Shown here: piece after piece, positions 1 to 8,206 of the stretch | Layout of the letters: every line of letters starts with the position of its first letter | Numbering within the stretch: the first letter of the stretch is position 1 | Virus record (IMG/VR): IMGVR_UViG_2690316131_000020 | Direction: 5' to 3' (one strand) | From: a virus | Taxonomy: Duplodnaviria > Heunggongvirae > Uroviricota > Caudoviricetes | Length of the DNA stretch: 8,206 bases | Made by a program: the position numbers and the translations under genes | Notes under the pieces: model-generated | The model's database searches: none | What the model was told of the DNA's origin: nothing | What the model saw: only the letters and a program-made list of their open reading frames with translations

Positions 1-942
1 CTAAATAGGCTGATTCGATGTGTTTACGGGAAAAAAATCGGCCCAGATCCGCGAAATTTTAATCAGCGAGTCAGCTTGGGAAGAAATGACCTGCTTATTC
101 GCACCTTCCCTAACCGCTCCTGATTCGGTTTTTATTACCGCCTCATCAGTTGGAGTTATAACCGTGGCTTCAACGTTAATAATCAGCTTTTGAGCGTCTA
201 TCAGCATCATGCGATCCGCCTGTTCGCTCACAATTACCGGTATTCTCAAAAGCTCTATCTGCCAGAACTCAGCATTAGTAAGCTGTAAGGCGTTTTCTAC
301 GGGCAAGATTAGCGACGACGTGGCAAGCGTGTTACCGTTCGCTATGTGCTTTTTGAAAAGCTCTATGAAGTTTTCGGCCTCATCAGCACCATTAAGCACG
401 CCCTCAGGGGATACGCCCGCCAACTCCTGGTCACTGGAAAGAAATTTTTTATCTATTTCTTTCACCGATTCCGATGTGATCAAGTCTCTGATCGCTGAAT
501 TGGTACCAGGGGTGCTAAATTTGATTAGCTCGTTATTCAGCATCACAATAGCGCCGAGTTTGTACAGTTTTAGCGAGCTTTCGCTTACTTCTCCCCCTTT
601 TACTGGGATTTCTTCGGCCTCTTTAAGCCATTTACTCCCCTTGCCTGATATTGATTGCAATTTTGCGCCAAAGGGAAGATTAAGCGCACTACTGATTAAC
701 TTGCCAGGTACAGACTGCGAAAAAATATACCCGCCCAGCTCTCTTGCTATCGGCTCAGCCACCAGCGACGGAAGGTTATCCGTGTTCATTCCTGCTACTA
801 CGGATTTTTCAAGGAATAACGAGACAGCCGGATCATTTCTTTTCGTCATCTCTATAGCGTCAGCATGGCTAAATTTACACGATGCCAGCACGCTGGCGGC
901 GCGAACTGCTGACACGCCTTTCATGTTTTTACAGATCATCAT
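1..942 (-). CDS. Putative major capsid protein, HK97-like fold (313 aa); family assignment tentative
   Basis: Complete ORF with TAG stop at 1-3 and ATG at 940-942, preceded by a strong SD (AGGAGGAGGAAG directly upstream). It lies downstream of the terS-like gene. The segment KEIDKKFLSSDQELAGVSPEGVLNG resembles the conserved FL-GDG-G-P-G-L region of HK97-family capsid proteins, and size and composition fit. No Walker A motif, so TerL is unlikely. Confidence 0.5.
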   Translation of the reverse strand: MMICKNMKGVSAVRAASVLASCKFSHADAIEMTKRNDPAVSLFLEKSVVAGMNTDNLPSLVAEPIARELGGYIFSQSVPGKLISSALNLPFGAKLQSISGKGSKWLKEAEEIPVKGGEVSESSLKLYKLGAIVMLNNELIKFSTPGTNSAIRDLITSESVKEIDKKFLSSDQELAGVSPEGVLNGADEAENFIELFKKHIANGNTLATSSLILPVENALQLTNAEFWQIELLRIPVIVSEQADRMMLIDAQKLIINVEATVITPTDEAVIKTESGAVREGANKQVISSQADSLIKISRIWADFFPVNTSNQPI

Positions 943-1090
943 CTTCCTCCTCCTGGAAGCACGGTGTTAGTGTTTCGTGAAAATATGGCATCAGAATAGC
1001 GGCGGCCTGTAACCGTATTTCGGTCGGCTGCTGCTTGTCGTTCATGATTTCCGTTAGTACCTCGATCGGGTCTGTTATGTATTCGCTCAT
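929..1090 (-). CDS. Small hypothetical protein (53 aa, MSEYITDPIEVLTEIMNDKQQPTEIRLQAAAILMPYFHETLTPCFQEEEDDDL)
   Basis: Below the ORF-track length cutoff; found by manual translation. ATG at 1088-1090 with GAGG about 10 nt upstream, overlapping the TerS stop. Its stop overlaps the start of the capsid-like gene (ATGATGATCTGTAA), suggesting translational coupling. Acidic C-terminal tail. Confidence 0.3.
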   Translation of the reverse strand: MSEYITDPIEVLTEIMNDKQQPTEIRLQAAAILMPYFHETLTPCFQEEEDDDL

Positions 1091-1101
1091 AGTTCGCTAC
1101 C

Positions 1102-1590
1102 TCAGTGTTTTAGGGCTGTTGGTGGCTTAGGGATGGGAAAGCGGTTTGATGAAACATTGGTAGCATTGAGTTTTTTTACCTCTTTTTTACCAATGCTGCT
1201 GATCTTGCGGTGGGTGAACTGGGCCAGCTTAAACGCGGCATCTAAAGCCAGTTTTGGATCTGTGTCCATGTTGTCAATCAGTATCCTGCCCATTGCTTTG
1301 ATGGGGTCGGGTAGGCCGTTATCCATCATCTCAATGGTGTTAATTGATGCCCGTTCCGGTGTAACTTTTTCGGTAACTTTCTTTGTAACTTTTTTCGGTT
1401 TTGTAACCTGAAAAGTTACATCAGAAGTTACAGCCTTAAGATACTTTTTCACCTCAGGATCATTGGATAGCTGCCAGCCTTTAACCCTTGCGGTCTTTTC
1501 GCTGTATCCCGCATGTATAGCGGCTTCCGTGGGATTTGCGCCCCTTGATAACGCATCAGCAAACCGCTTTTTTTTGGTCGTTAATGCCAT
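1102..1590 (-). CDS. Terminase small subunit homologue (162 aa)
   Basis: N-terminus MALTTKKKRFADALSRGANPTEAAIHAGYSEKTARVKGWQLSNDPEVKKYL matches the conserved HTH region of phage TerS proteins (KQ-F---Y--G-N-T-AAI-AGYS-KTA). ATG at 1588-1590 with GAGG 7 nt upstream. The longer track ORF (to 1728) would use GTG without an SD and overlap the upstream gene, so the ATG start is preferred. Confidence 0.7.
   Translation of the reverse strand: MALTTKKKRFADALSRGANPTEAAIHAGYSEKTARVKGWQLSNDPEVKKYLKAVTSDVTFQVTKPKKVTKKVTEKVTPERASINTIEMMDNGLPDPIKAMGRILIDNMDTDPKLALDAAFKLAQFTHRKISSIGKKEVKKLNATNVSSNRFPIPKPPTALKH
1361..1431. repeat. Cluster of GTAAC/GTTAC pentamer repeats inside the terS-like gene (4 direct plus 2 inverted copies); further copies upstream at 1613-1635
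   Basis: Plus-strand GTAAC at 1361, 1373, 1385 and 1403; GTTAC at 1415 and 1427. These encode the repeated KVT motif (VTFQVTKPKKVTKKVTEKVT) in TerS. Two more GTGTAACTTTT copies lie in the noncoding leader at 1613-1623 and 1625-1635. Confidence 0.55.
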
Positions 1591-1717
1591 GCAAAAACCT
1601 CGTTTTGAGGGGGTGTAACTTTTCGTGTAACTTTTTTGAAAAGCAAAATTTTCTACGAATGAGACGGGGGGCGGTGTCCAGGGCGATCGACTTTCCGGCC
1701 GGAACACTCCCCCCCTG

Positions 1718-1879
1718 TCATTGCTCACCGAGTAACGAGATCAGGCCTTCAACTTCATCACTCAGCTTGTTTATTCGTGTCTCAAGCTCTGCGATCTTTT
1801 CCATCAATGGCGCTATGGTGTCTCTTGTTTCCTCGCCAATGGCTTTAATGATGCTTGCCTCGCGTTCTGTGATAGCCAT
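1718..1879 (-). CDS. Small hypothetical protein (53 aa, MAITEREASIIKAIGEETRDTIAPLMEKIAELETRINKLSDEVEGLISLLGEQ), likely coiled-coil
   Basis: Below the ORF-track cutoff; found by manual translation. ATG at 1877-1879 with GAGG about 10 nt upstream. Tight junction with the upstream ORF stop (TAA ACA ATG). Heptad-like helical sequence. Confidence 0.4.
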   Translation of the reverse strand: MAITEREASIIKAIGEETRDTIAPLMEKIAELETRINKLSDEVEGLISLLGEQ

Positions 1880-2453: not shown

Positions 2454-2657
2454 TCCCCACTACTCCCCACTTTTGCTCCCCACTTTTTGAAATTACCCAC
2501 CGTCTCCCCACCTCTTTTTTTTGTGATTCTAACGTTATGTTTTTCAATATGTTTTTTACTCCCCACTTTTTTGGGTATATACAGGTGGGAAAGTGGGTAA
2601 TTATGTTTCAATTTTGTTAAATTCCCCACTCCCCCCACTTTTACTCCCCACTTTTTA
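2453..2657. repeat. Iteron array flanking an AT-rich stretch: candidate replication origin of the element
   Basis: About 9 direct copies of (T)CCCCAC(TTTT) (cores at 2455, 2465, 2477, 2495 degenerate, 2507, 2561, 2624, 2633, 2646) plus inverted copies at 2584-2597 (GGTGGGAAAGTGGG). They flank an AT-rich segment at about 2513-2557 that includes a T8 run. The array starts at the 3' end of the replication initiator gene, as in SaPI/PICI-type origins. Confidence 0.6.
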
Positions 2658-4055
2658 CAGCGGGCGCACGTCATCACCGTCAATAACGATTACGCCATCA
2701 TTTTCCAGCTTGTACAGCCAGCGCCGGAAGTGCTTCATCTCATACCCCAGCTTTTTCATATCGTCGCGGAGAAGGGCGATAGTGCACGCCTCCCCGTGTG
2801 CTGTTCGTGTTCTGATGCACTGCCATAGCGCGGCGTGATTCTCCGTCTTGTTCCCTGCCTCCTCGATGCGCTCCAGTTCAACGGGAGGGCGCGGCTTATC
2901 CACCACCACCAGCGACGTGATTAACTCCCCGTCAGCGTCGGTAAAAAGCTCCACCACGCGTAAGTCATATGCTGCTTCTTTGAGTTCCTCCGCGTCCTTC
3001 ATTTTGGTACATGAGATAACCAGCGCTTCGCTGCCTGCGTCCTCCCTGCGTATCCGGTATTCGGCGTCCAGTGATGCACGAAATGCACTGGAACCACGCG
3101 CCCCCTTTGTTTCATCCTTGCCGGAATGGTGAACCACCAGCACCGTTGCCCCTGTGCGCCGTTTCAGTTCGTCACACCCACGGATAAACGCCCCCATATC
3201 ACGGGAATCATTTTCATCATTGCCGCCAAAGCAGCGCGCCAGCGTATCCAGAATAATCATTCGAACCGGTTTACCCGTTTCCCGTTCCACCTGACGGGCA
3301 GCGATAACCATTTCCTCAACATCAAGCGGGGCAGCCGGAAAGATGGGACGGTTTACCAGATACAGATTTTTCACCTGCTCATCGTGCACAACCTCCCAGG
3401 CTTTTACACGACGCGGAACACCTATACCGCCTTCACCAACCACATAGAGAACCGCACCATGTGCAACCCTGCTGCCTCCCCACTGGCGACCAGTGGCAAC
3501 ATGGCACGCCCACGATCCGGCAAGGAATGATTTATAGGACCCGCTAGCCCCGTATATGCTGCATAGCGATACCGCCGGAATAATCCCCTTAACCACGTAA
3601 TCCAGTTGCGTGTCGTATCCGGTAGATCCAACGCTCATCGGTAGCGTGGTTTTTCGCTGGTGGTTTTTTTCTTCCGCCGGCTCTTTCCCGCGCACCCGTT
3701 CCAGGTATTCGCGCCAGTTCTCCCGCATATGGCTGTGCATCCCTTCGGGGTAATAATTCGCATCAGTTACACCCGCCGCCGCCAGCTTGTGCGCAATGGC
3801 ATTAATATTTGATGGCCTGATGTGGCCTGCCTTGTACAGCCGGACACAATAGCGCCCCTCGTCGATGATTCTCAGGTCTGCCAGTTCATCCAGTTGATCA
3901 TCAGCCAGCACAACGGGAGGCACATTATCGCCAGCCAGTCGCCCGTCCTGTTCCTGCCACTGTTTCGCATGTGCCCAGGCATCACTACCCGCAAAAATAA
4001 TGACTTCGGTCATCTTGTCGTAAGGCTGTTTTTTTAAGTTCGGTGCGCTTTTCAT
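2655..4055 (-). CDS. Replication initiator / helicase-like protein (466 aa): RecA-fold RepA-type (AAA_25-like) ATPase core, N-terminal domain of uncertain type, C-terminal winged-helix-like tail
   Basis: Walker A GASGSYKS, Walker B-like RMIILDTLARCF, and VLVVHHSGKD typical of RepA / DnaB-like loader ATPases. ATG at 4053-4055 with AGGGG SD (6 nt spacer). ATGA overlap with the upstream 99 aa ORF. The iteron origin follows immediately downstream. Confidence 0.85.
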   Translation of the reverse strand: MKSAPNLKKQPYDKMTEVIIFAGSDAWAHAKQWQEQDGRLAGDNVPPVVLADDQLDELADLRIIDEGRYCVRLYKAGHIRPSNINAIAHKLAAAGVTDANYYPEGMHSHMRENWREYLERVRGKEPAEEKNHQRKTTLPMSVGSTGYDTQLDYVVKGIIPAVSLCSIYGASGSYKSFLAGSWACHVATGRQWGGSRVAHGAVLYVVGEGGIGVPRRVKAWEVVHDEQVKNLYLVNRPIFPAAPLDVEEMVIAARQVERETGKPVRMIILDTLARCFGGNDENDSRDMGAFIRGCDELKRRTGATVLVVHHSGKDETKGARGSSAFRASLDAEYRIRREDAGSEALVISCTKMKDAEELKEAAYDLRVVELFTDADGELITSLVVVDKPRPPVELERIEEAGNKTENHAALWQCIRTRTAHGEACTIALLRDDMKKLGYEMKHFRRWLYKLENDGVIVIDGDDVRPL

Positions 4056-4351
4056 TTCTTGCCCCTGAATCCGTTAACCATGGTTTTCAGCTTCTGGATG
4101 TTTGCCCGTGCCCTGGCGTTGCTGGTGGGCACGTTATGCGGCGCGGTCTGTACCAGAGAAAAATCACGCCGGAACTGATAAACAGGCATCACGCAATCAT
4201 ATTCGTAACCTTCACGGCGGTAAGTTACGCACCGTCCCGCCACGCCCTTAATCATTACCGTGCCGCCGTACTGGTCGCGGTAAATATCACCGCGCATAAA
4301 TTTAGGGTGAGTGTTGCCACTGGCAGTTAAGCCAGAATATTTAAGTTTCAT
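4052..4351 (-). CDS. Hypothetical protein (99 aa), translationally coupled to the replication initiator
   Basis: ATG at 4349-4351 with GGAGA SD (about 10 nt spacer). Its stop overlaps the rep start (ATGA). Motif DIYRDQYGGTVMIKGVAGRCVTYRREGYEYDCVMPVYQF; family not identified. Confidence 0.6.
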   Translation of the reverse strand: MKLKYSGLTASGNTHPKFMRGDIYRDQYGGTVMIKGVAGRCVTYRREGYEYDCVMPVYQFRRDFSLVQTAPHNVPTSNARARANIQKLKTMVNGFRGKK

Positions 4352-4356
4352 TATTT

Positions 4357-4591
4357 TTATTCTCCGGTGTGCTGTTCGTTATATCTGTCGTGCAATGTCT
4401 CTATTTCCTGCAACTCATTTATTACAGGCTCAAGAAGCGTTATTAATGATGTAATAATCCGCGTTTTTTTTTGCATTACGTTCATTATCGCCAAAGGATT
4501 CAAGGCACATCCGCAATATTTCGTACATACCTTCAGCGTAAGCAAGGGCACTAAATGCGCGGTCTATTGTTTCAAGATAAATATCACGCAT
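4357..4591 (-). CDS. Small protein encoded in two overlapping frames joined at an A9 tract: frame 1 from ATG 4591 ends at 4430 (53 aa); the +1 frame continues to a stop at 4357
   Basis: ATG at 4589-4591 with GGGGA SD (5 nt spacer) gives MRDIYLETIDRAFSALAYAEGMYEILRMCLESFGDNERNAKKNADYYIINNAS. The overlapping frame (...QKKTRIITSLITLLEPVINELQEIETLHDRYNEQHTGE) lacks a good start but ends 5 nt before the next gene's ATG. The T9/A9 run is at 4464-4472. Confidence 0.35.
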
Positions 4592-4592
4592 A

Positions 4593-4814
4593 TTAATCCC
4601 CGTCCGTTGTTTTTCTTAAAACAGCTTCTGTCACGAAATCAGCATAGTTAGCGGCAATATCAAGAATATTTAGCCCTGTACCTCTGTGCTCATCAGTGCA
4701 AAGAAAGAAAAAAGCCACCCGCATAATTTCAGATATTGACGAAAGCGCATCAGCCGCATCATCAGGAACGCCGGAAAATTCTTGTTTCAGGGAATTAAAA
4801 CGATCATCACGCAT
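4593..4814 (-). CDS. Small hypothetical protein (73 aa, MRDDRFNSLKQEF...)
   Basis: ATG at 4812-4814 overlapping the stop of the upstream ORF (ATGCGTGA), with a G-rich SD-like run upstream. The track ORF was trimmed to this start. Confidence 0.45.
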   Translation of the reverse strand: MRDDRFNSLKQEFSGVPDDAADALSSISEIMRVAFFFLCTDEHRGTGLNILDIAANYADFVTEAVLRKTTDGD

Positions 4815-5028
4815 AACCCCCCCCATTTTCACAATCAGCAACAAGAATATTTTTAGCGTCATTCAGCGACCGCGTTGCGATGTATCGGATACATTCCAGG
4901 GCGAACGTTGTCCGGTCTTTCTGTTCTTCTCCCTGCGCAAGCTCTGCCGTGCATTCAATATCAATAAGCGCGTGCATCAGCGTAGTGAGCGCGGCGGCGG
5001 CTGCGTCCGGTGTGGTTTTATTGCACAT
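4807..5028 (-). CDS. Small hypothetical protein (73 aa, MCNKTTPDAAAAALTTLMHALIDIECTAELAQ...)
   Basis: ATG at 5026-5028 with a strong SD (AGGAGG, 6 nt spacer). Overlaps the 3' end of the upstream small ORF by 11 nt. Confidence 0.5.
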   Translation of the reverse strand: MCNKTTPDAAAAALTTLMHALIDIECTAELAQGEEQKDRTTFALECIRYIATRSLNDAKNILVADCENGGGYA

Positions 5029-5209
5029 GGCACACCTCCTGACGAATACGGGCGGCGAATACAGCAACACAACCGGACGGGCAACGGCTACGTGCTTCGC
5101 GTTCCGTCCAGGCGGTTACGTGGATGATTTGATGTTCTGACGCGCCAAAGATGATAAAGCGCCAGAGAAAGGCGGTTTGAGAATGTACAAGGGTAGGGAT
5201 AGTAGCCAT
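5018..5209 (-). CDS. Small protein, copy A of a tandem paralogous pair (63 aa, MATIPTLVHSQTAFLWRFIIFGASEHQIIHVTAWTE...)
   Basis: ATG at 5207-5209 with a strong SD (AGGAGG, 8 nt spacer). The N-terminal 15-20 codons are paralogous to the ORF starting at 5578, with differences mostly at third codon positions. It is the 3' part of the long 409-codon track ORF. Confidence 0.55.
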   Translation of the reverse strand: MATIPTLVHSQTAFLWRFIIFGASEHQIIHVTAWTEREARSRCPSGCVAVFAARIRQEVCHVQ

Positions 5210-5369
5210 GTTGGCAGCCTCCTCAGTGTGGTTAAGATAACCGCCACCGGAAACGCCAATTTCGCTGGTGGCGGACTGTACAGGGTTGGCGTAACCGGAC
5301 ACTGAAGAAACCGGCGCGGATTGCTCCGCCCCCGTACAGCCCACCATTGATAAGGTGTGACTATGCGGC

Positions 5370-5395
5370 ACAAAAAAACACGCGGGGCGCGTGTT
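5370..5395 (-). terminator. Intrinsic terminator-like hairpin plus U7 (minus strand), inside the stop-free frame between copies B and A
   Basis: On the minus strand: stem ACACGCG / CGCGUGU with loop CCC, followed by 7 U (the complement of the plus-strand A7 at 5372-5378). Confidence 0.4.
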
Positions 5396-5578
5396 ATGCG
5401 CTTCAGTTTTGCCCAGGACGCCAATCCCGGCACCCGTTTTATGAGGTGCGCGGGAATCATAGCTATTTTCGACACTGGCGATCAACTGGTTTTTTTCTCC
5501 GATATTCAGGGCCAGAAAACGCCACACAAAGGCCGTTTGTGTGTGTACAAGGTGTGGTATATGATTTACGGCAACCAT
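5396..5578 (-). other. Copy B of the tandem paralogous leader ORF (MVAVNHIPHLVHTQTAFVWRFLALNIGEKNQLIASVEN...); no in-frame stop before copy A
   Basis: ATG at 5576-5578 with AGGAG SD (5 nt spacer). Paralogous to copy A. The frame stays open through a terminator-like hairpin into copy A, so its real 3' end and coding status are unresolved. Confidence 0.3.
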
Positions 5579-5666
5579 AACGGCTCCTAGTTTACGTTGT
5601 TGGTTAGACGCCCCGTATGTGTTCCCAGCACTGCGGGGCGTTGATTTTTGTGTAATGGCAAGTACA

Positions 5667-5711
5667 ATGGTAATTACCATGTAGGTATAGTAATGAAGGG
5701 TAATTACCATG
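5667..5711. promoter_or_regulatory. Two palindromic operator-like sites in the divergent control region: ATGGTAATTACCAT (5667-5680, perfect 14 bp palindrome) and AGGGTAATTACCAT (5697-5710), with a -10-like TATAGT at 5686-5691
   Basis: The perfect palindrome is repeated 30 bp downstream, where it overlaps the start codon of the Arc-like gene. An AAGGG SD lies 8 nt before that ATG. The sites sit between the plus-strand RHH gene and the minus-strand leader ORFs. Confidence 0.5.
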
Positions 5712-5882
5712 TCAACACCATTAGAAAAACGTTCGCCTCCATACCAAATGCGATTACCGGAAGACTTCAGAGCGCAGCTAGAAGAAGCAGCTAAGGCCGA
5801 TGGCGACACATCTTTAGCCACTTGGATTAAACGCGTTCTCCGCAAAGAATTACAGCAACGCGGCATAGAACCCAAAGGATAA
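5709..5882 (+). CDS. Arc/MetJ-type ribbon-helix-helix DNA-binding protein (57 aa), candidate repressor
   Basis: Below the ORF-track cutoff; found by manual translation: MSTPLEKRSPPYQMRLPEDFRAQLEEAAKADGDTSLATWIKRVLRKELQQRGIEPKG. The RLPE-D/E-L...EAA...G-x-T/S...I...L pattern is typical of Arc-like RHH domains. An in-frame stop lies just upstream at 5694, and the palindromic operators overlap its promoter and start. Confidence 0.7.
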   Translation: MSTPLEKRSPPYQMRLPEDFRAQLEEAAKADGDTSLATWIKRVLRKELQQRGIEPKG

Positions 5883-5924
5883 AAACTATCAGCGCCGTGG
5901 TGTGAGGTATTACGGCGCATTGCT

Positions 5925-6113
5925 ATGCAGGACAACACAATGACCGATAAAGAATTGACCAAAACATTATCACCGGCACGGAAAAGACGGCGCAGAAAGA
6001 TAGAGCATGAATCAGAAAGATTCGCGCCATGTGCTTTTGCCCTTGAGCAATTCCTTAAAGAGTACAGGGAAAAGCGCTCATTGCAGGTATGGCAACGAAC
6101 TGAACCAGACTGA
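5925..6113 (+). CDS. Hypothetical small basic protein (62 aa); weak call
   Basis: ATG ORF downstream of the Arc-like gene and upstream of the terminator at 6209-6235, but with no convincing SD. The antisense frame is part of the rejected 409-codon ORF. Confidence 0.25.
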   Translation: MQDNTMTDKELTKTLSPARKRRRRKIEHESERFAPCAFALEQFLKEYREKRSLQVWQRTEPD

Positions 6114-6208
6114 TTGCATTGCCCACCAGCCTGATAGCGGCTATCATCCCCGTGCTTATGTTTGGGATCACATACACATAAGGCGCAGCGGGTTAATTGT
6201 TCAGAAAG

Positions 6209-6235
6209 GCGGCTCCATATCGGGGCCGCTTTTTT
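6209..6235. terminator. Intrinsic terminator, probably bidirectional, between the convergent plus-strand RHH operon and minus-strand alpA
   Basis: Stem GCGGCUCC / GGGGCCGC (8 bp with one G-U pair), loop AUAUC, then T6 on the plus strand. On the minus strand the same hairpin is followed by CUUUCU. It lies about 30 nt downstream of the alpA stop. Confidence 0.6.
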
Positions 6236-6261
6236 CGTGTTTGTCATATCTGTGATACCCG

Positions 6262-6468
6262 TTAAGCAGCCGTTCCGCGTGCTTCCTCTTCGCGTTCTTT
6301 CTGCCAGGACAACACATCATCCTCATACCATCCGCGACGGCGTAAACCAACGCGAAAACCCTGCGGAAATTCTCCGGCGTTGATCATGCTTTGCAGCGTG
6401 CTGTCTGCCTTGATGTGGATAATTTTTTTTACTTCCTGGCGAAAGATAATTTTTCTGATTGCTTCCAT
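6262..6468 (-). CDS. alpA: AlpA-family phage transcriptional regulator / excisionase-like HTH protein (68 aa)
   Basis: Motif ...FRQEVKKIIHIKADSTLQSMINAGEFPQGFRVGLRRRGWYEDDVLSWQ matches the AlpA family signature (G-K/E-FP...R..GW.E.D...W). ATG at 6466-6468 with AAGGT SD. Positioned two genes from a P4-type integrase. Confidence 0.85.
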   Translation of the reverse strand: MEAIRKIIFRQEVKKIIHIKADSTLQSMINAGEFPQGFRVGLRRRGWYEDDVLSWQKEREEEARGTAA

Positions 6469-6964: not shown

Positions 6965-8206
6965 CTACACGGCTCGGATACCCCTTTTACCACTGGCGAG
7001 GGTTACGCCCGTCGCCGCAGCCTCGACAAATTCGCCCCACCAGCGCATCAGCACGATGCGTTTTTCTATGTAGTTGCTCCGGTTGTATGCCCGTCTAACT
7101 TCGTTGGTGTCGACGTGGGCAAGTGCCGCCTCTATTACGTCCGGCTCGAATCCTTCCTCGTTCGCTGCTGTGCTGAATATGGCGCGTAATCCATGAGACA
7201 CCAGCACGCCAGCGAATCCCATACGCCGCAATGCTGCGTTAGCTGTCTGGCTGTTCATCGGCTGCTGTGGGTCTTTCAGACTTGGGAAAACGTAATTGCG
7301 GTGGTGGCTGATTGGTTTCATGGCCTCCAGCACCGCCATAGCCTGACCGGAAAGCGGGATAACGTGATCCCTGCGCATCTTCATGCGTCCGGCAGGTATC
7401 GTCCATTGCTTCGCGTCCAGGTTGATTTCATCCCACCGCGTTGATGACGCTTCGGCGGGACGGGTTACGGTCAGTAACTGCCATTCAATCAGTAATCTGG
7501 TCTGCCGTTCTGTTGCCGATACTGATAAAGCCTGCATAAGCTCGGGCAGCTGTTCGGGGCGGATTGTTGGCATATGTTTTTTTACAGGTGAGGGAAACGC
7601 CTTACGCACATTCATAGCCGGATTGGCATCAATCAGCCCACTGTTGGCGGCGTAATCCATTACCTCATTAACGCGCTGTAAAACCCGCTTGAGTGTTTCC
7701 AGGTTGCCGCGCTCCTTGATGGGGGTAAGCACTTCAACGAACCTTCGGGCGGTGAGGGTATCTATTGGCGTGTTGCCGATGAACGGGAATACATATTTAT
7801 CCAGCGAACGCCAGATGTCTTTAATCGTGTTGGGGGCCAGATTCTGGCTGATTTTCACCTGGTACCATGCCGCCGCCACATTTTCGAACGTGTTCCCTTG
7901 TCTTCGGGCCTCTGTCTCTCTTTTTTGCCTCTCGTGGTCCTGCGGGTCAGTTCCGGCACTGATTAACGTCCTGTACTCGCTACGGCGTTTTCTGGCATCA
8001 GCCAGGGAAACATCTTCAAGCGATCCAAAACTCAGCAATATTCTTTTTTTGTCCGATGGTCGGTAGTAGGAAAATCTCCAGAGTTTTGATCCAGACGGTT
8101 TGACCAGGAGAAAAAGCCCTCCGCCGTCCTGCAGGGTGTACTCCTTTTGCGCTGGTCTGGCTGCTTTGATCTGCACTGTGGTTAATGGGTGTGTTTTTCT
8201 CGCCAT
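6965..8206 (-). CDS. int: Tyrosine recombinase / integrase, P4-like family (413 aa)
   Basis: N-terminal arm-binding-type region (TLQDGGGLFLLVKPSGSKLWRFSYY). C-terminal catalytic motifs HGLRA and LAHVDTNEVRRAYNRSNY (H-x-x-R and catalytic Tyr). ATG at 8204-8206 is the last triplet of the window, so its upstream signals are not visible and a longer N-terminus cannot be excluded. Confidence 0.9.
   Translation of the reverse strand: MARKTHPLTTVQIKAARPAQKEYTLQDGGGLFLLVKPSGSKLWRFSYYRPSDKKRILLSFGSLEDVSLADARKRRSEYRTLISAGTDPQDHERQKRETEARRQGNTFENVAAAWYQVKISQNLAPNTIKDIWRSLDKYVFPFIGNTPIDTLTARRFVEVLTPIKERGNLETLKRVLQRVNEVMDYAANSGLIDANPAMNVRKAFPSPVKKHMPTIRPEQLPELMQALSVSATERQTRLLIEWQLLTVTRPAEASSTRWDEINLDAKQWTIPAGRMKMRRDHVIPLSGQAMAVLEAMKPISHHRNYVFPSLKDPQQPMNSQTANAALRRMGFAGVLVSHGLRAIFSTAANEEGFEPDVIEAALAHVDTNEVRRAYNRSNYIEKRIVLMRWWGEFVEAAATGVTLASGKRGIRAV

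Follow-up and report, generated by a model that had tools for sequence, protein, structure and literature searches.

What is the chain of small overlapping genes at positions 4052-5028, and why does it lie directly in front of a replication gene? The window, by which we mean the whole stretch of 8,206 nucleotides that we analysed, carries this chain between its leader ORFs and rep, and the original prediction saw there a run of probably co-translated ORFs without a placeable motif, at a position where satellites and phages keep helper-interference, anti-defence or replication accessory genes. Our analyses suggest that positions 4052-5028 form the central part of the early (replication) operon in a small E. 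coli phage satellite of the Gram-negative PICI type; this, taken as one explanation together with the mechanism described below, we consider probable. RefSeq already annotates the chain, which represents the early operon conserved in a very common family of E. coli phage satellites; as a chain of small genes it is an ordinary finding, and its notable gene, rgdR, was characterised as early as 2012.

The satellite and its chain of small genes

On the minus strand, the window encodes in order an integrase (int), an alpA-like gene, an Ash-domain ORF, genes A, B and C, RgdR, a RepA-type replicase, terS and a capsid gene (Table 1). The Ash-domain ORF ends as an Icd-like leader. Within the ORF lie two RNA elements, one isrK/seqA-like and the other a C4/CI-type antisense RNA. 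Integrase, alpA, replicase and packaging genes in this order, in an element far smaller than a phage, are what identifies Gram-negative PICIs and cf-PICIs, and the satellite setting of the original prediction is supported by int, the alpA-like gene, the replicase, terS and the capsid gene. The alpA-like gene matches Pfam Phage_AlpA weakly, below the cut-off (17.9 bits for a cut-off of 21), and RefSeq names the gene of a relative 'helix-turn-helix transcriptional regulator'. The nearest relatives of the island are found at tRNA-Pro, adjoining yejM. Judged by its gene content the element is a phage satellite, with putative induction and transfer by a helper. Like EcCICFT073 and EcCIEDL933, it combines int, an alpA-like gene, a Bro/Ash zone with an immunity RNA, a replication zone and a late zone (Fillol-Salom 2018; Alqurainy 2023 preprint; four-zone model of Tommasini 2023); rgdR is common to these islands and the window, and many of them have this chain of small ORFs in their annotation. 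In contrast to them, the island measures only 8.2 kb from int to capsid, which is very small, and besides terS and a short ORF its late zone has nothing but a single gene of the capsid family.

Table 1. Positions of genes, RNA elements and homopolymer tracts in the window
Feature	Position	Strand	Properties
int	6965-8206	minus	
alpA-like gene	6262-6468	minus	
isrK-type element (P4 seqA-like)	5373-5449	minus	Rfam RF01394, 66 bits (gathering 50); holds upstream C4 targets a1 (5418-5424) and b1 (5401-5407)
C4 / P4-CI-type antisense (immunity) RNA	5264-5351	minus	Rfam RF01695, 77.6 bits (gathering 45), full-length model 1-87
Downstream C4 targets	5216-5259	minus	a2 UUGGCGU (5253-5259); b2 ACACUGAGGAGGCU (5216-5229)
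Icd-like leader ORF	5018-5209	minus	63 aa; NCBIfam phage_ICD_like, 57.1 bits
Gene A	4807-5028	minus	73 aa; ATG start; SD AGGAGG; pI 4.5; PHROG 5146
Poly-G tract, G8	4817-4824	minus	A/B junction
Gene B	4593-4814	minus	73 aa; pI 4.3-4.4; PHROG 24341; G8 run as SD
Gene C	4357-4591	minus	intact form 77 aa, acidic; PHROG 2196
A9 homopolymer (T9 on plus strand)	4464-4472	minus	frameshift site in C
rgdR orthologue (gene E)	4052-4351	minus	99 aa; SD GGAGAA; DUF4222; pI 10.2
rep	2655-4055	minus	466 aa; RepA/AAA_25 helicase; Pfam AAA_25 2e-43; PHROG 2850
terS	1102-1728	minus	
Capsid gene	1-942	minus	

The chain comprises four co-oriented and tightly coupled genes, A, B, C and the 99-aa gene, followed by the replicase. 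The Icd-like ORF upstream of A stops 11 nt inside it, A and B overlap in ATGCGTGA, B and C join in TAATATG, rgdR begins 5 nt past the end of the continuation of C, and an ATGA overlap leads into rep. The predicted overlaps (ATGA, ATGCGTGA and 11 nt) are all there, with the qualification that ATGCGTGA is just one state of a length-polymorphic poly-G tract. Each small gene has a Shine-Dalgarno sequence of its own, so that coupling may be only partial. The 11-nt overlaps, the 5-nt gap before rgdR and the ATGA into rep are kept in islands where A is only 38% and C only 32% identical. RefSeq carries the identical chain annotation in hundreds of E. coli genomes, in islands that differ in integrases, replicases and packaging modules, and the 1.4-kb chain stretch finds matches in 2367 of 5426 complete E. 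coli genomes (599 at >=80% coverage). Pooled pN/pS ratios are 0.30 for A, 0.37 for B, 0.41 for C and 0.30 for rgdR. Because of this annotation, prevalence, selection and conserved stop-start geometry, the small ORFs lie far beyond chance: all four genes are real and under purifying selection, and we agree with the original prediction that they share one orientation and are arranged so that translation can be coupled through to rep.

The leader and its antisense RNA

The leader is the in-frame end of an open 409-aa Ash-domain ORF (5018-6247; Pfam Phage_ASH matches the long ORF). The N-terminal half of this ORF looks non-coding and two plus-strand ORFs with PHROG matches lie antisense to it, which makes an Eta-like full-length translation uncertain. 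Two RNA elements within this region, both new here and missed by the original prediction, best explain the coupled layout of the chain. The isrK-type element ends in a terminator hairpin, with a terminator-like site at 5395-5377. The a' segment of the C4 RNA (ACGCCAA) is complementary to UUGGCGU at two sites, and its b' segment (GGUUUCUUCAGUGU) is complementary to ACACUGAGGAGGCU in b2, a site that takes in the Shine-Dalgarno of the leader (its ATG is at 5209), and also to ACUGAAG upstream. The duplex between the C4 loop and the Shine-Dalgarno has a predicted energy of -25.7 kcal/mol, against -13.9 +/- 2.8 for shuffles, none of 1000 of which reached it. Across islands, four specificity types (the window, L005, L075 and L088) differ in a', in b' or in both, with compensatory changes in the two targets. 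In Gram-negative PICIs, C4 and isrK are related to the CI and seqA of P4, whose eta follows a logic of translation and anti-termination (PMC10111431).

The closest known arrangements are the immI region of P1 and P7 (c4, icd, ant) and the P4 immunity region with its left operon (seqA, CI RNA and seqC within eta/kil; then cII, epsilon, orf151 and alpha). In P1/P7 and in P4 (PMC10111431 for P4), the RNA represses the downstream genes through a block of translation and premature termination. As in these phages, a C4-family RNA would be processed from the very transcript that it controls (in the window, by homology), complementarity involves two elements on both sides, and the downstream site falls on the ribosome-binding site of an Icd-like leader; as in P4, a run of small genes then leads to the replicase, which in the window is nevertheless of the RepA type and not P4 alpha. 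With respect to the icd-ant module of P1, the Icd-like leader is present and the Ant-family antirepressor is absent, A, B and C matching neither Ant nor any phage protein. A further difference is that many islands have the same chain and no detectable C4: we detected C4 and isrK only in window-type islands (L001, L005, L075 and L088) and found neither in L002, L003, L004, L006, L007, L008, L050, L081, L089 or Sakai Sp7, although their chain is the same or similar. Gating by RNA is accordingly one of several regulatory front ends and not a property of the chain.

Where the RNA is present, it plausibly gates the whole coupled chain, rep included. By homology with P1/P7 c4-icd-ant and with the P4 left operon (CI/seqA-eta), we think it probable, for the explanation as a whole, that the early operon is C4-gated and coupled. 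In the integrated state, the C4-type RNA would block translation of the leader and provoke premature termination, leaving the chain and the replicase silent. A helper phage would turn on an alpA-dependent upstream promoter, ribosomes would translate through the leader, and the stop-start overlaps would hand translation down through A, B, C and RgdR into rep. RgdR would then act as a transcription co-factor, its barrel contacting a partner such as RNA polymerase and its basic helix assisting, while A, B and C would most likely be cooperating protein-binding modules built as helical hairpins.

RgdR in front of the replicase

The 99-aa ORF was among those said to have no placeable motif; it does have one. 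Its product matches Pfam PF13973 (DUF4222) over residues 16-68 with 82.6 bits (cut-off 27), is 79% identical to ECs1581 of E. coli O157:H7 and, by sequence, is an RgdR orthologue. ECs1581, encoded on OI-51/CP-933C/Sakai Sp7 (the cf-PICI EcCIEDL933), has C1493 (EcCICFT073) and ECED1_1787 as orthologues; it was characterised in 2012 as an activator of the LEE1 promoter and of type III secretion and a repressor of motility (PMC3378721). Like ECs1581, the window protein has 99 aa, a DUF4222 domain, a pI of about 10 and an ATGA overlap with a satellite replicase, as well as R20-G21-D22, which is the RGD motif at residues 20-22, and K35, all of them residues on which activation of type III secretion was found to depend (PMC3378721). 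Among 107 alleles, only G21 and D22 of these are invariant, and position 20 is R in 55, N in 23, P in 21, C in 4, S in 2, L in 1 and H in 1. Activity was shown for ECs1581 and C1493 only (PMC3378721); the identity of 79% lies within the range of functional orthologues, active C1493 being reported at 83% similarity. The window protein differs from ECs1581 in A10 and R45 (D10 and H45 there) and in the sequence of the C-terminal helix, and its gene is preceded by A-B-C and followed by a RepA/AAA_25 helicase, whereas ecs1581 is preceded by the ECs1578-1580 set and followed by a DUF927 primase (ECs1582).

The AF2 model of RgdR shows a Tudor/SH3-like barrel of five strands over about 50 residues plus a basic helix, and Foldseek matches it to DUF1653 phage proteins. 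The predicted barrel resembles those that sit on RNA polymerase (the C-terminal domains of UvrD and PcrA, the N-terminal domain of CarD/CdnL, the KOW domain of NusG/Spt5), and in CarD, as in the RgdR prediction, the barrel is followed by a basic helical part that contacts DNA; RgdR nevertheless lacks sequence similarity to the polymerase-docking Tudor domains, and its fold, a very common one, is no guide to function. RgdR binds DNA weakly (PMC3378721). On the basis of the model, RgdR is most likely a transcription co-factor whose barrel contacts a protein partner, for example RNA polymerase, and whose basic helix binds DNA weakly; the responses of LEE and motility to it would be by-products of a function in the satellite.

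An alternative relates this function to the neighbouring gene, with RgdR, and possibly A, B and C, as accessory subunits of the replicase (a loader, an origin-binding or a regulatory partner), RgdR working with the N-terminal domain of Rep and the LEE and motility effects being off-target. We found rgdR in 1238 of 5426 genomes, always immediately upstream of a replicase and usually with the ATGA overlap, whatever the replicase type (RepA, primase/D5_N-DUF5906 or DUF927), and it was stated to be in all analysed E. coli PICIs (PMC6092414). Moreover, a homology block at 3690-4366 is common to islands with primase, DUF5906 or DUF927 replicases: it covers rgdR and the first ~120 rep codons and then breaks, so that the first ~120 residues of Rep are shared with islands of other replicase types. 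The strong basicity of RgdR, its weak binding of DNA and the likeness of its barrel to the Tudor domains of the UvrD and PcrA helicases would also suit such a partner. However, ecs1581 alone in trans restores type III secretion in a strain deleted for the whole island (PMC3378721), and RgdR therefore acts without Rep or a satellite origin; the satellite-like record vB_KppS-Ant has the same Rep N-terminal domain without a DUF4222 gene upstream, the homology block may only mark a recombination breakpoint, and many islands do without A, B and C. We regard this accessory role as possible, if on balance unlikely, and retain the transcription co-factor in the C4-gated operon as our reading of RgdR.

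Genes A, B and C

For the other three genes, the statement that no motif can be placed stands: A, B and C match nothing in Pfam, NCBIfam, PADLOC or PDB, a tblastn search against 50,697 phage records returned nothing, and our literature search found no paper on any of them. They are confined to Escherichia/Shigella satellites and are all acidic (pI 4.3-4.7, net charge -5 to -8 each, against +11.6 for RgdR), with residues conserved across alleles. The original prediction held that absence of the ORFs from closely related functional islands would refute its reading, and this is in part what we observed, at the same or other att sites: A/B/C are missing or swapped for other small ORFs in E. albertii L005, Sakai Sp7 and L075/L088, which makes them accessory rather than core. 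The slot is mosaic: six or more families of small ORFs replace one another there, and alleles diverge.

Gene A corresponds in relatives to the RefSeq CDS WP_001372127. Gene B is known from only 75 protein clusters, all of E. coli/Shigella, and is optional among related islands, being absent in L075, L088, L008 and L005. At their junction, the poly-G tract encodes the Gly-Gly-Gly tail of A and doubles as the Shine-Dalgarno of B, and a new observation is that its length toggles the two genes between split and fused: G8 and G11 split them, G7 and G10 fuse them, and G9 gives A a short alternative tail. Run lengths in the fetched islands were G7 (n=16), G8 (n=25), G9 (n=13), G10 (n=2) and G11 (n=1), and in 7 of 10 groups of islands with identical 300-nt flanks the length varies; among complete RefSeq genomes with the flanks of the window, G7, G8 and G9 occur in at most 10, 43 and 129, these counts being upper bounds. 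The view that A and B act together is based on their fusion into a 154-aa CDS in an O157 strain (WP_000551675), on PHROG 2512, whose first half matches A and second half B, and on natural fusions, A-B often and B-C hybrids occasionally, in some islands.

The ORF of '53(+)' residues is coding as predicted but is not a separate short gene. In relatives C has 77 aa, and it is a single intact CDS in strain 2013C-4187 (a 97.7%-identical island) and in strain 2013C-4991 (a 99%-identical allele); in the window a +1 frameshift breaks it into a 53-aa ORF (4430-4591) and a C-terminal remainder in another frame. The run of A9 accounts for this split by one extra A, all six other copies of this allele type having A8 (five, plus one with near-identical upstream context). 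Owing to the frameshift, 78 nt in front of rgdR go untranslated, which would make coupling weaker except in the case of a sequencing error or of rescue by slippage. C-type proteins form 440 clusters in a word search and have only 15 representatives among 1.84 billion proteins. The AF2 model of C is a confident two-helix hairpin (pLDDT 93; helices 2-33 and 37-75) with no significant PDB match by fold or sequence; fold search gave generic hairpins only, and a match to the cGAMP sponge Vs.4 of T4 was not significant (E = 1).

It was from this slot that helper interference or anti-defence had been expected. A, B and C could indeed be effectors directed at helper or host (helper derepression or interference, anti-defence), by analogy of position with P4 epsilon or P1 Ant, since they occupy the place of ant in P1 immI and of cII, epsilon and orf151 in the P4 left operon (PMC10111431 for P4). 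Small, acidic and satellite-specific proteins in a mosaic slot, with a variable central patch in C, would fit this role; yet neither the defence-system models of PADLOC (which none of A, B, C, RgdR, Rep and the Icd-like ORF matched at E <= 0.1), nor the phage tblastn, nor the fold search gave anything that points to it. We detected no similarity of A, B, C or RgdR to Ant, cII, epsilon or orf151, nor of A, B and C to any other P4 or P1 protein, the overall pN/pS of 0.3-0.4 speaks for purifying selection rather than an arms race, and the helpers of the cf-PICI EcCIEDL933, an island with a C-type gene, suffer no interference from it (preprint 10.1101/2022.09.08.507074). An effector role seems to us unlikely. 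More elaborate, and distinctly improbable in our judgement, is a cooperating module in which RgdR would be a CarD-like factor (a polymerase-docking Tudor barrel with a basic helix) re-programming host or helper transcription, a complex of the acidic A, B and C would partner, chaperone or antagonise RgdR or the Rep N-terminal domain, the hypermutable poly-G tract would convert A/B from split to fused and back, and heteroimmune C4-type RNAs would license the module. That the small ORFs are non-functional, either spacers or leaders whose translation alone keeps ribosomes on the mRNA or chance ORFs, is hardly credible. In favour of it, every junction suits coupling, its geometry is conserved while sequences fall to 32-38% identity, B can be absent, as can all three of A, B and C in some islands, and C is frameshifted here, but pN/pS is 0.30-0.41 for all four genes, C has a confident fold, small-gene residues are conserved across alleles, and single-residue changes alter RgdR function at the protein level (PMC3378721).

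The C4-gated early operon remains the reading that we favour, and within it A, B and C, as compact and satellite-restricted ORFan families with natural fusions, are reasonable candidates for functional screens of satellite and helper. As RgdR alters the expression of EHEC virulence genes, the barrel and helix of its model, its fixed position before the replicase and the travelling N-terminal domain of Rep lead to testable hypotheses on its native role. Finally, a chain placed behind a C4/CI-type RNA with compensatory variation offers a simple test of how satellite induction is coupled to replication and, via rgdR, to virulence.

The satellite and its small-ORF chain

The window holds a small phage satellite of the Gram-negative PICI type, and its features are collected in the table below. 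In E. coli 2013C-4187, an island 97.7% identical to it occupies the tRNA-Pro locus, with yejM and yejO on either side; there RefSeq annotates an Icd-like CDS (63 aa), hypothetical proteins of 73, 73 and 77 aa, a DUF4222 protein (99 aa) and a "helicase RepA family protein". Of 5426 complete E. coli genomes, 2367 match the 1.4-kb stretch surrounding the chain, including 599 in which the match covers 80% or more of it. The late zone of this 8.2-kb island (1-1728, minus strand) holds only terS, a 53-aa ORF and the 313-aa capsid-family gene; it is without portal, protease and large terminase genes, a point on which cf-PICIs such as the comparison island L002 differ.

Features of the island, with signals and scores
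Feature	Coordinates	Strand	Remarks
Capsid-family gene, 313 aa	1-942	-	
Small terminase subunit (terS)	1102-1728	-	
Three short ORFs	between replicase and terS	-	
RepA/AAA_25 replicase (rep), 466 aa	2655-4055	-	Pfam 2e-43
Small-ORF chain	4052-5028	-	
E (rgdR)	4052-4351	-	SD GGAGAA; junction with rep ATGA
C	start 4591	-	junction TAATATG
B	4593-4814	-	overlap with A ATGCGTGA
A	4807-5028	-	SD AGGAGG; 11-nt overlap with the Icd-like ORF stop
C4 antisense RNA, full-length	5264-5351	-	Rfam 77.6 bits (gathering score 45)
isrK (P4 seqA-like) element	5373-5449	-	Rfam 66 bits (gathering score 50)
Open frame, 409 aa	5018-6247	-	start 15 nt past the alpA-like stop; two Icd-like repeats
Arc-like ribbon-helix-helix ORF, 57 aa	5709-5882	+	PHROG 228 (1.5e-6); antisense to the 409-aa frame
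ORF, 62 aa	5925-6113	+	PHROG 21027 member; antisense to the 409-aa frame
Small HTH/AlpA-like gene	6262-6468	-	
Integrase	6965-8206	-	

The coordinates and junctions of the original prediction were borne out by a check of ORFs and junctions, and its view that the ORFs are probably real and co-translated holds well, the genes being coupled and real, since pooled pN/pS lies at 0.30 for A, 0.37 for B, 0.41 for C and 0.30 for E and the stop-start geometry is retained even where the A and C of an island show only 38% and 32% identity. The ORF first listed as 53(+) aa is present, but comparison with relatives reveals its real nature as a frameshifted gene C, which encodes 77 aa in intact alleles: the run at 4464-4472 is A9 (T9 on the plus strand), against A8 in all six further copies of this type of allele. 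The A9 run may be due to an error in sequencing, or else to recent mutation or pseudogenisation, and it is conceivable that RNA polymerase slippage on the run might partly rescue C.

RgdR and the replicase

None of the ORFs had been thought to carry a placeable motif, which stands for A, B and C but not for the 99-aa ORF, whose product matches Pfam DUF4222 (82.6 bits) and is the known regulator RgdR. This protein was identified as ECs1581 in O-island 51 (CP-933C) of O157:H7 and described as a protein of 99 aa (11.7 kDa, pI 10.1) with an RGD motif at residues 20-22, an activator of LEE1 and type III secretion and a repressor of motility that also changes Congo-red binding, binds DNA only weakly and non-specifically, and depends on residues 20 and 35 for its activity (Flockhart et al. 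2012, PMC3378721). RgdR is stated to be encoded by every E. coli PICI analysed (PMC6092414). Identity between ECs1581 and the window protein is 79%, and R20, G21, D22 and K35 are all present in the latter. At the Sakai locus ECs1581 is preceded by ECs1577 (Icd-like), ECs1578, ECs1579 and ECs1580 and lies directly 5' of the replicase gene ECs1582, exactly the position it has in the window. Across 107 full-length RgdR alleles the sole invariant residues are G21 and D22; at position 20, 55 alleles have R, 23 have N and 21 have P.

The gene was found in 1238 of 5426 genomes, and the next gene downstream is always a replicase, be it a RepA helicase, a D5_N/DUF5906 primase or a DUF927 protein. Islands that differ in their replicase share nucleotide homology from the small-ORF slot across rgdR up to a point some 350 nt inside rep; rgdR therefore travels together with the N-terminal ~120 residues of Rep, a segment (3690-4055, minus strand) with no Pfam match. 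The idea that RgdR and the Rep N-terminal domain form an obligatory pair is weakened by the satellite-like vB_KppS-Ant, which has the Rep domain without a DUF4222 gene.

The AlphaFold2 model of RgdR, built on a 74-sequence alignment, reaches a pLDDT of about 92 over residues 20-70 and consists of five short strands and a short helix, resembling a Tudor/SH3-like barrel, followed by a basic helix (77-96). Several Tudor/SH3-like barrels dock on RNA polymerase, and in CarD a barrel of this kind is joined to a helical part that contacts DNA. Given this predicted likeness and the published pleiotropic effects on promoters, we infer that the most economical model is one in which RgdR would act as an RNA-polymerase-associated co-factor.

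Probable antisense RNA control at the leader

Both the C4 RNA and the isrK element are found just 5' of the Icd-like leader ORF, within the open 409-aa frame, whose end is the Icd-like ORF itself and in which Pfam also recognises a Phage_ASH domain (1.8e-16). The N-terminal half of this frame is rich in Cys, Ser and Arg, is non-coding in appearance and is overlapped by the two antisense ORFs with PHROG matches; in RefSeq, the corresponding region of relatives is annotated as Icd-like and Ash pseudogene fragments. Relatives also have a YlcI/YnfO-family gene annotated on the plus strand of this same zone, and the antisense ORFs may represent a divergently transcribed satellite regulator.

The C4 and isrK profiles pick up RNAs related to CI, the immunity RNA of P4, and to seqA, its target, and they match a number of Gram-negative PICIs; when P4 translates eta from the upstream, alpA-linked promoter, termination is blocked, so that downstream genes are read (Tommasini et al. 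2023, PMC10111431). In the window, the loop of C4 hairpin 2 (b') is complementary to 5216-5229, a target (b) that includes the Shine-Dalgarno sequence of the leader, with a duplex energy of -25.7 kcal/mol against -13.9 +/- 2.8 for shuffled sequences (0/1000). A second C4 element (a') is complementary to sites (a) at 5253-5259, downstream, and at 5418-5424, in isrK. The same a'/b' logic is known from the c4 RNA of P1/P7, and compensatory changes in C4 and its targets are seen across four island types, as listed below, which amounts to good comparative evidence for a functional pairing.

C4 elements and their complementary targets in the window and three comparison islands
Island	b'	b target	a'	a target
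Window	GGUUUCUUCAGUGU	ACACUGAGGAGGCU	ACGCCAA	UUGGCGU
L005	GUUUCCUGUAAC	GUUACAGGAGGC	GUGGUAA	UUACCAC
L075	UCCUGUAGU	ACUACAGGA	CUGCUAA	UUAGCAG
L088	UCCUGUAGU	ACUACAGGA	CUGUCAA	UUGACAG

Because C4 pairs with the leader Shine-Dalgarno sequence and the changes are compensatory, the tight coupling that runs from the leader through A, B, C and rgdR to rep in window-type islands is best read as a relay, by which the ON/OFF decision taken at the leader RNA would be passed through the coupled genes to the replicase, a reading limited by the fact that each chain gene has its own Shine-Dalgarno sequence and by the non-coding appearance of the N-terminal half of the 409-aa frame. Such control is not a universal feature of the chain. 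Islands L002, L006, L007, L008 and L090 (Sakai Sp7) combine the same or a related small-ORF chain with other integrases, and neither C4 nor isrK was detected in them, as is the case for C4 in most chain-bearing islands with other front ends; therefore at least two regulatory front ends feed the same chain.

The acidic genes and the poly-G tract

The products of A, B and C are acidic (pI 4.3-4.7; RgdR 10.2), gave no usable match in Pfam, NCBIfam, PADLOC or PDB sequences, and fall into PHROG families that are all of "unknown function"; no study of these small ORFs was found in the literature on EcCICFT073, cf-PICIs and synthetic PICIs. B is represented by just 75 protein clusters, all from E. 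coli or Shigella. The families of RgdR and C both appear narrow, since a contig profile scan with the RgdR alignment met two loci only (Shigella and E. albertii) and an exhaustive HMM search of 1.84 billion proteins returned only 15 representatives of C (a word search gave 440 clusters). In tblastn, 50,697 phage genomes yielded one weak match for RgdR, in an 8.6-kb "Klebsiella phage" record, and nothing for an A-B fusion or for C; a phage origin, or homology to P4 or P1 genes, is thus unsupported by this search.

C is predicted as one long two-helix hairpin (pLDDT 93), and a fold search with it returned generic helical hairpins only; even the best of them, a designed heterodimer (E = 0.35) followed by T4 Vs.4 (E = 1), fell short of significance. 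Natural B-C hybrids in E. coli (P0052, P0053), in which the N-terminal helix region of B is joined to C or to its C-terminal helix, suggest that B shares this hairpin topology. Common descent of A, B, C and the slot families X and F1 from one hairpin family is either to be rejected or undetectable, hhalign probabilities being all below 2% with shallow profiles. Across 89 loci, a sample biased toward RgdR alleles near that of the window, the slot is a mosaic: the orders Icd-A-B-C-R, Icd-X-A-B-C-R and Icd-Y-A-B-C-R (Y being another slot family) are common, and Icd-A-C-R, Icd-F1-X-C-R (Sakai type), Icd-F1-R (E. albertii) and Icd-R also occur. A, B and C are therefore accessory.

From their sequences A and B appear to work together; A-B fusions are on record as PHROG 2512 (154 aa) and as a CDS of that same length annotated in an O157 strain. 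Their junction reads GAAAAT-G(n)-TTATGCGTGA, with G8 at 4817-4824 in the window, and among the islands retrieved n takes the values 7 (16 loci), 8 (25), 9 (13), 10 (2) and 11 (1). Runs of G7 and G10 give an in-frame A-B fusion, G8 and G11 the overlap seen in the window, and G9 a short alternative tail of A. Run length varies within 7 of 10 groups of islands with identical 150+150-nt flanks, and complete RefSeq genomes with the 40+40-nt flanks of the window (class of at least 99% identity) comprise 10 with G7, 43 with G8 and 129 with G9, counts to be taken as upper bounds, since they may include a few perfect matches that are only partial; the tract is therefore truly variable and not merely an artefact of draft assemblies. 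As the start of B and its Shine-Dalgarno sequence (the G-run itself) are present in every state, this variation probably alters protein architecture and does not switch expression off.

The observation thus stands, and the interpretation first placed on it is supported in part: the genes are real and coupled, and three of the four are uncharacterised. The fourth encodes a known regulator, the whole arrangement is a known, widespread satellite module, and the proposal of a slot for helper interference or anti-defence found no indication in this analysis. It is not the ORF chain as such that is of interest, but the native mechanism of RgdR, the C4-gated coupling with its heteroimmune covariation and the poly-G split/fusion polymorphism.
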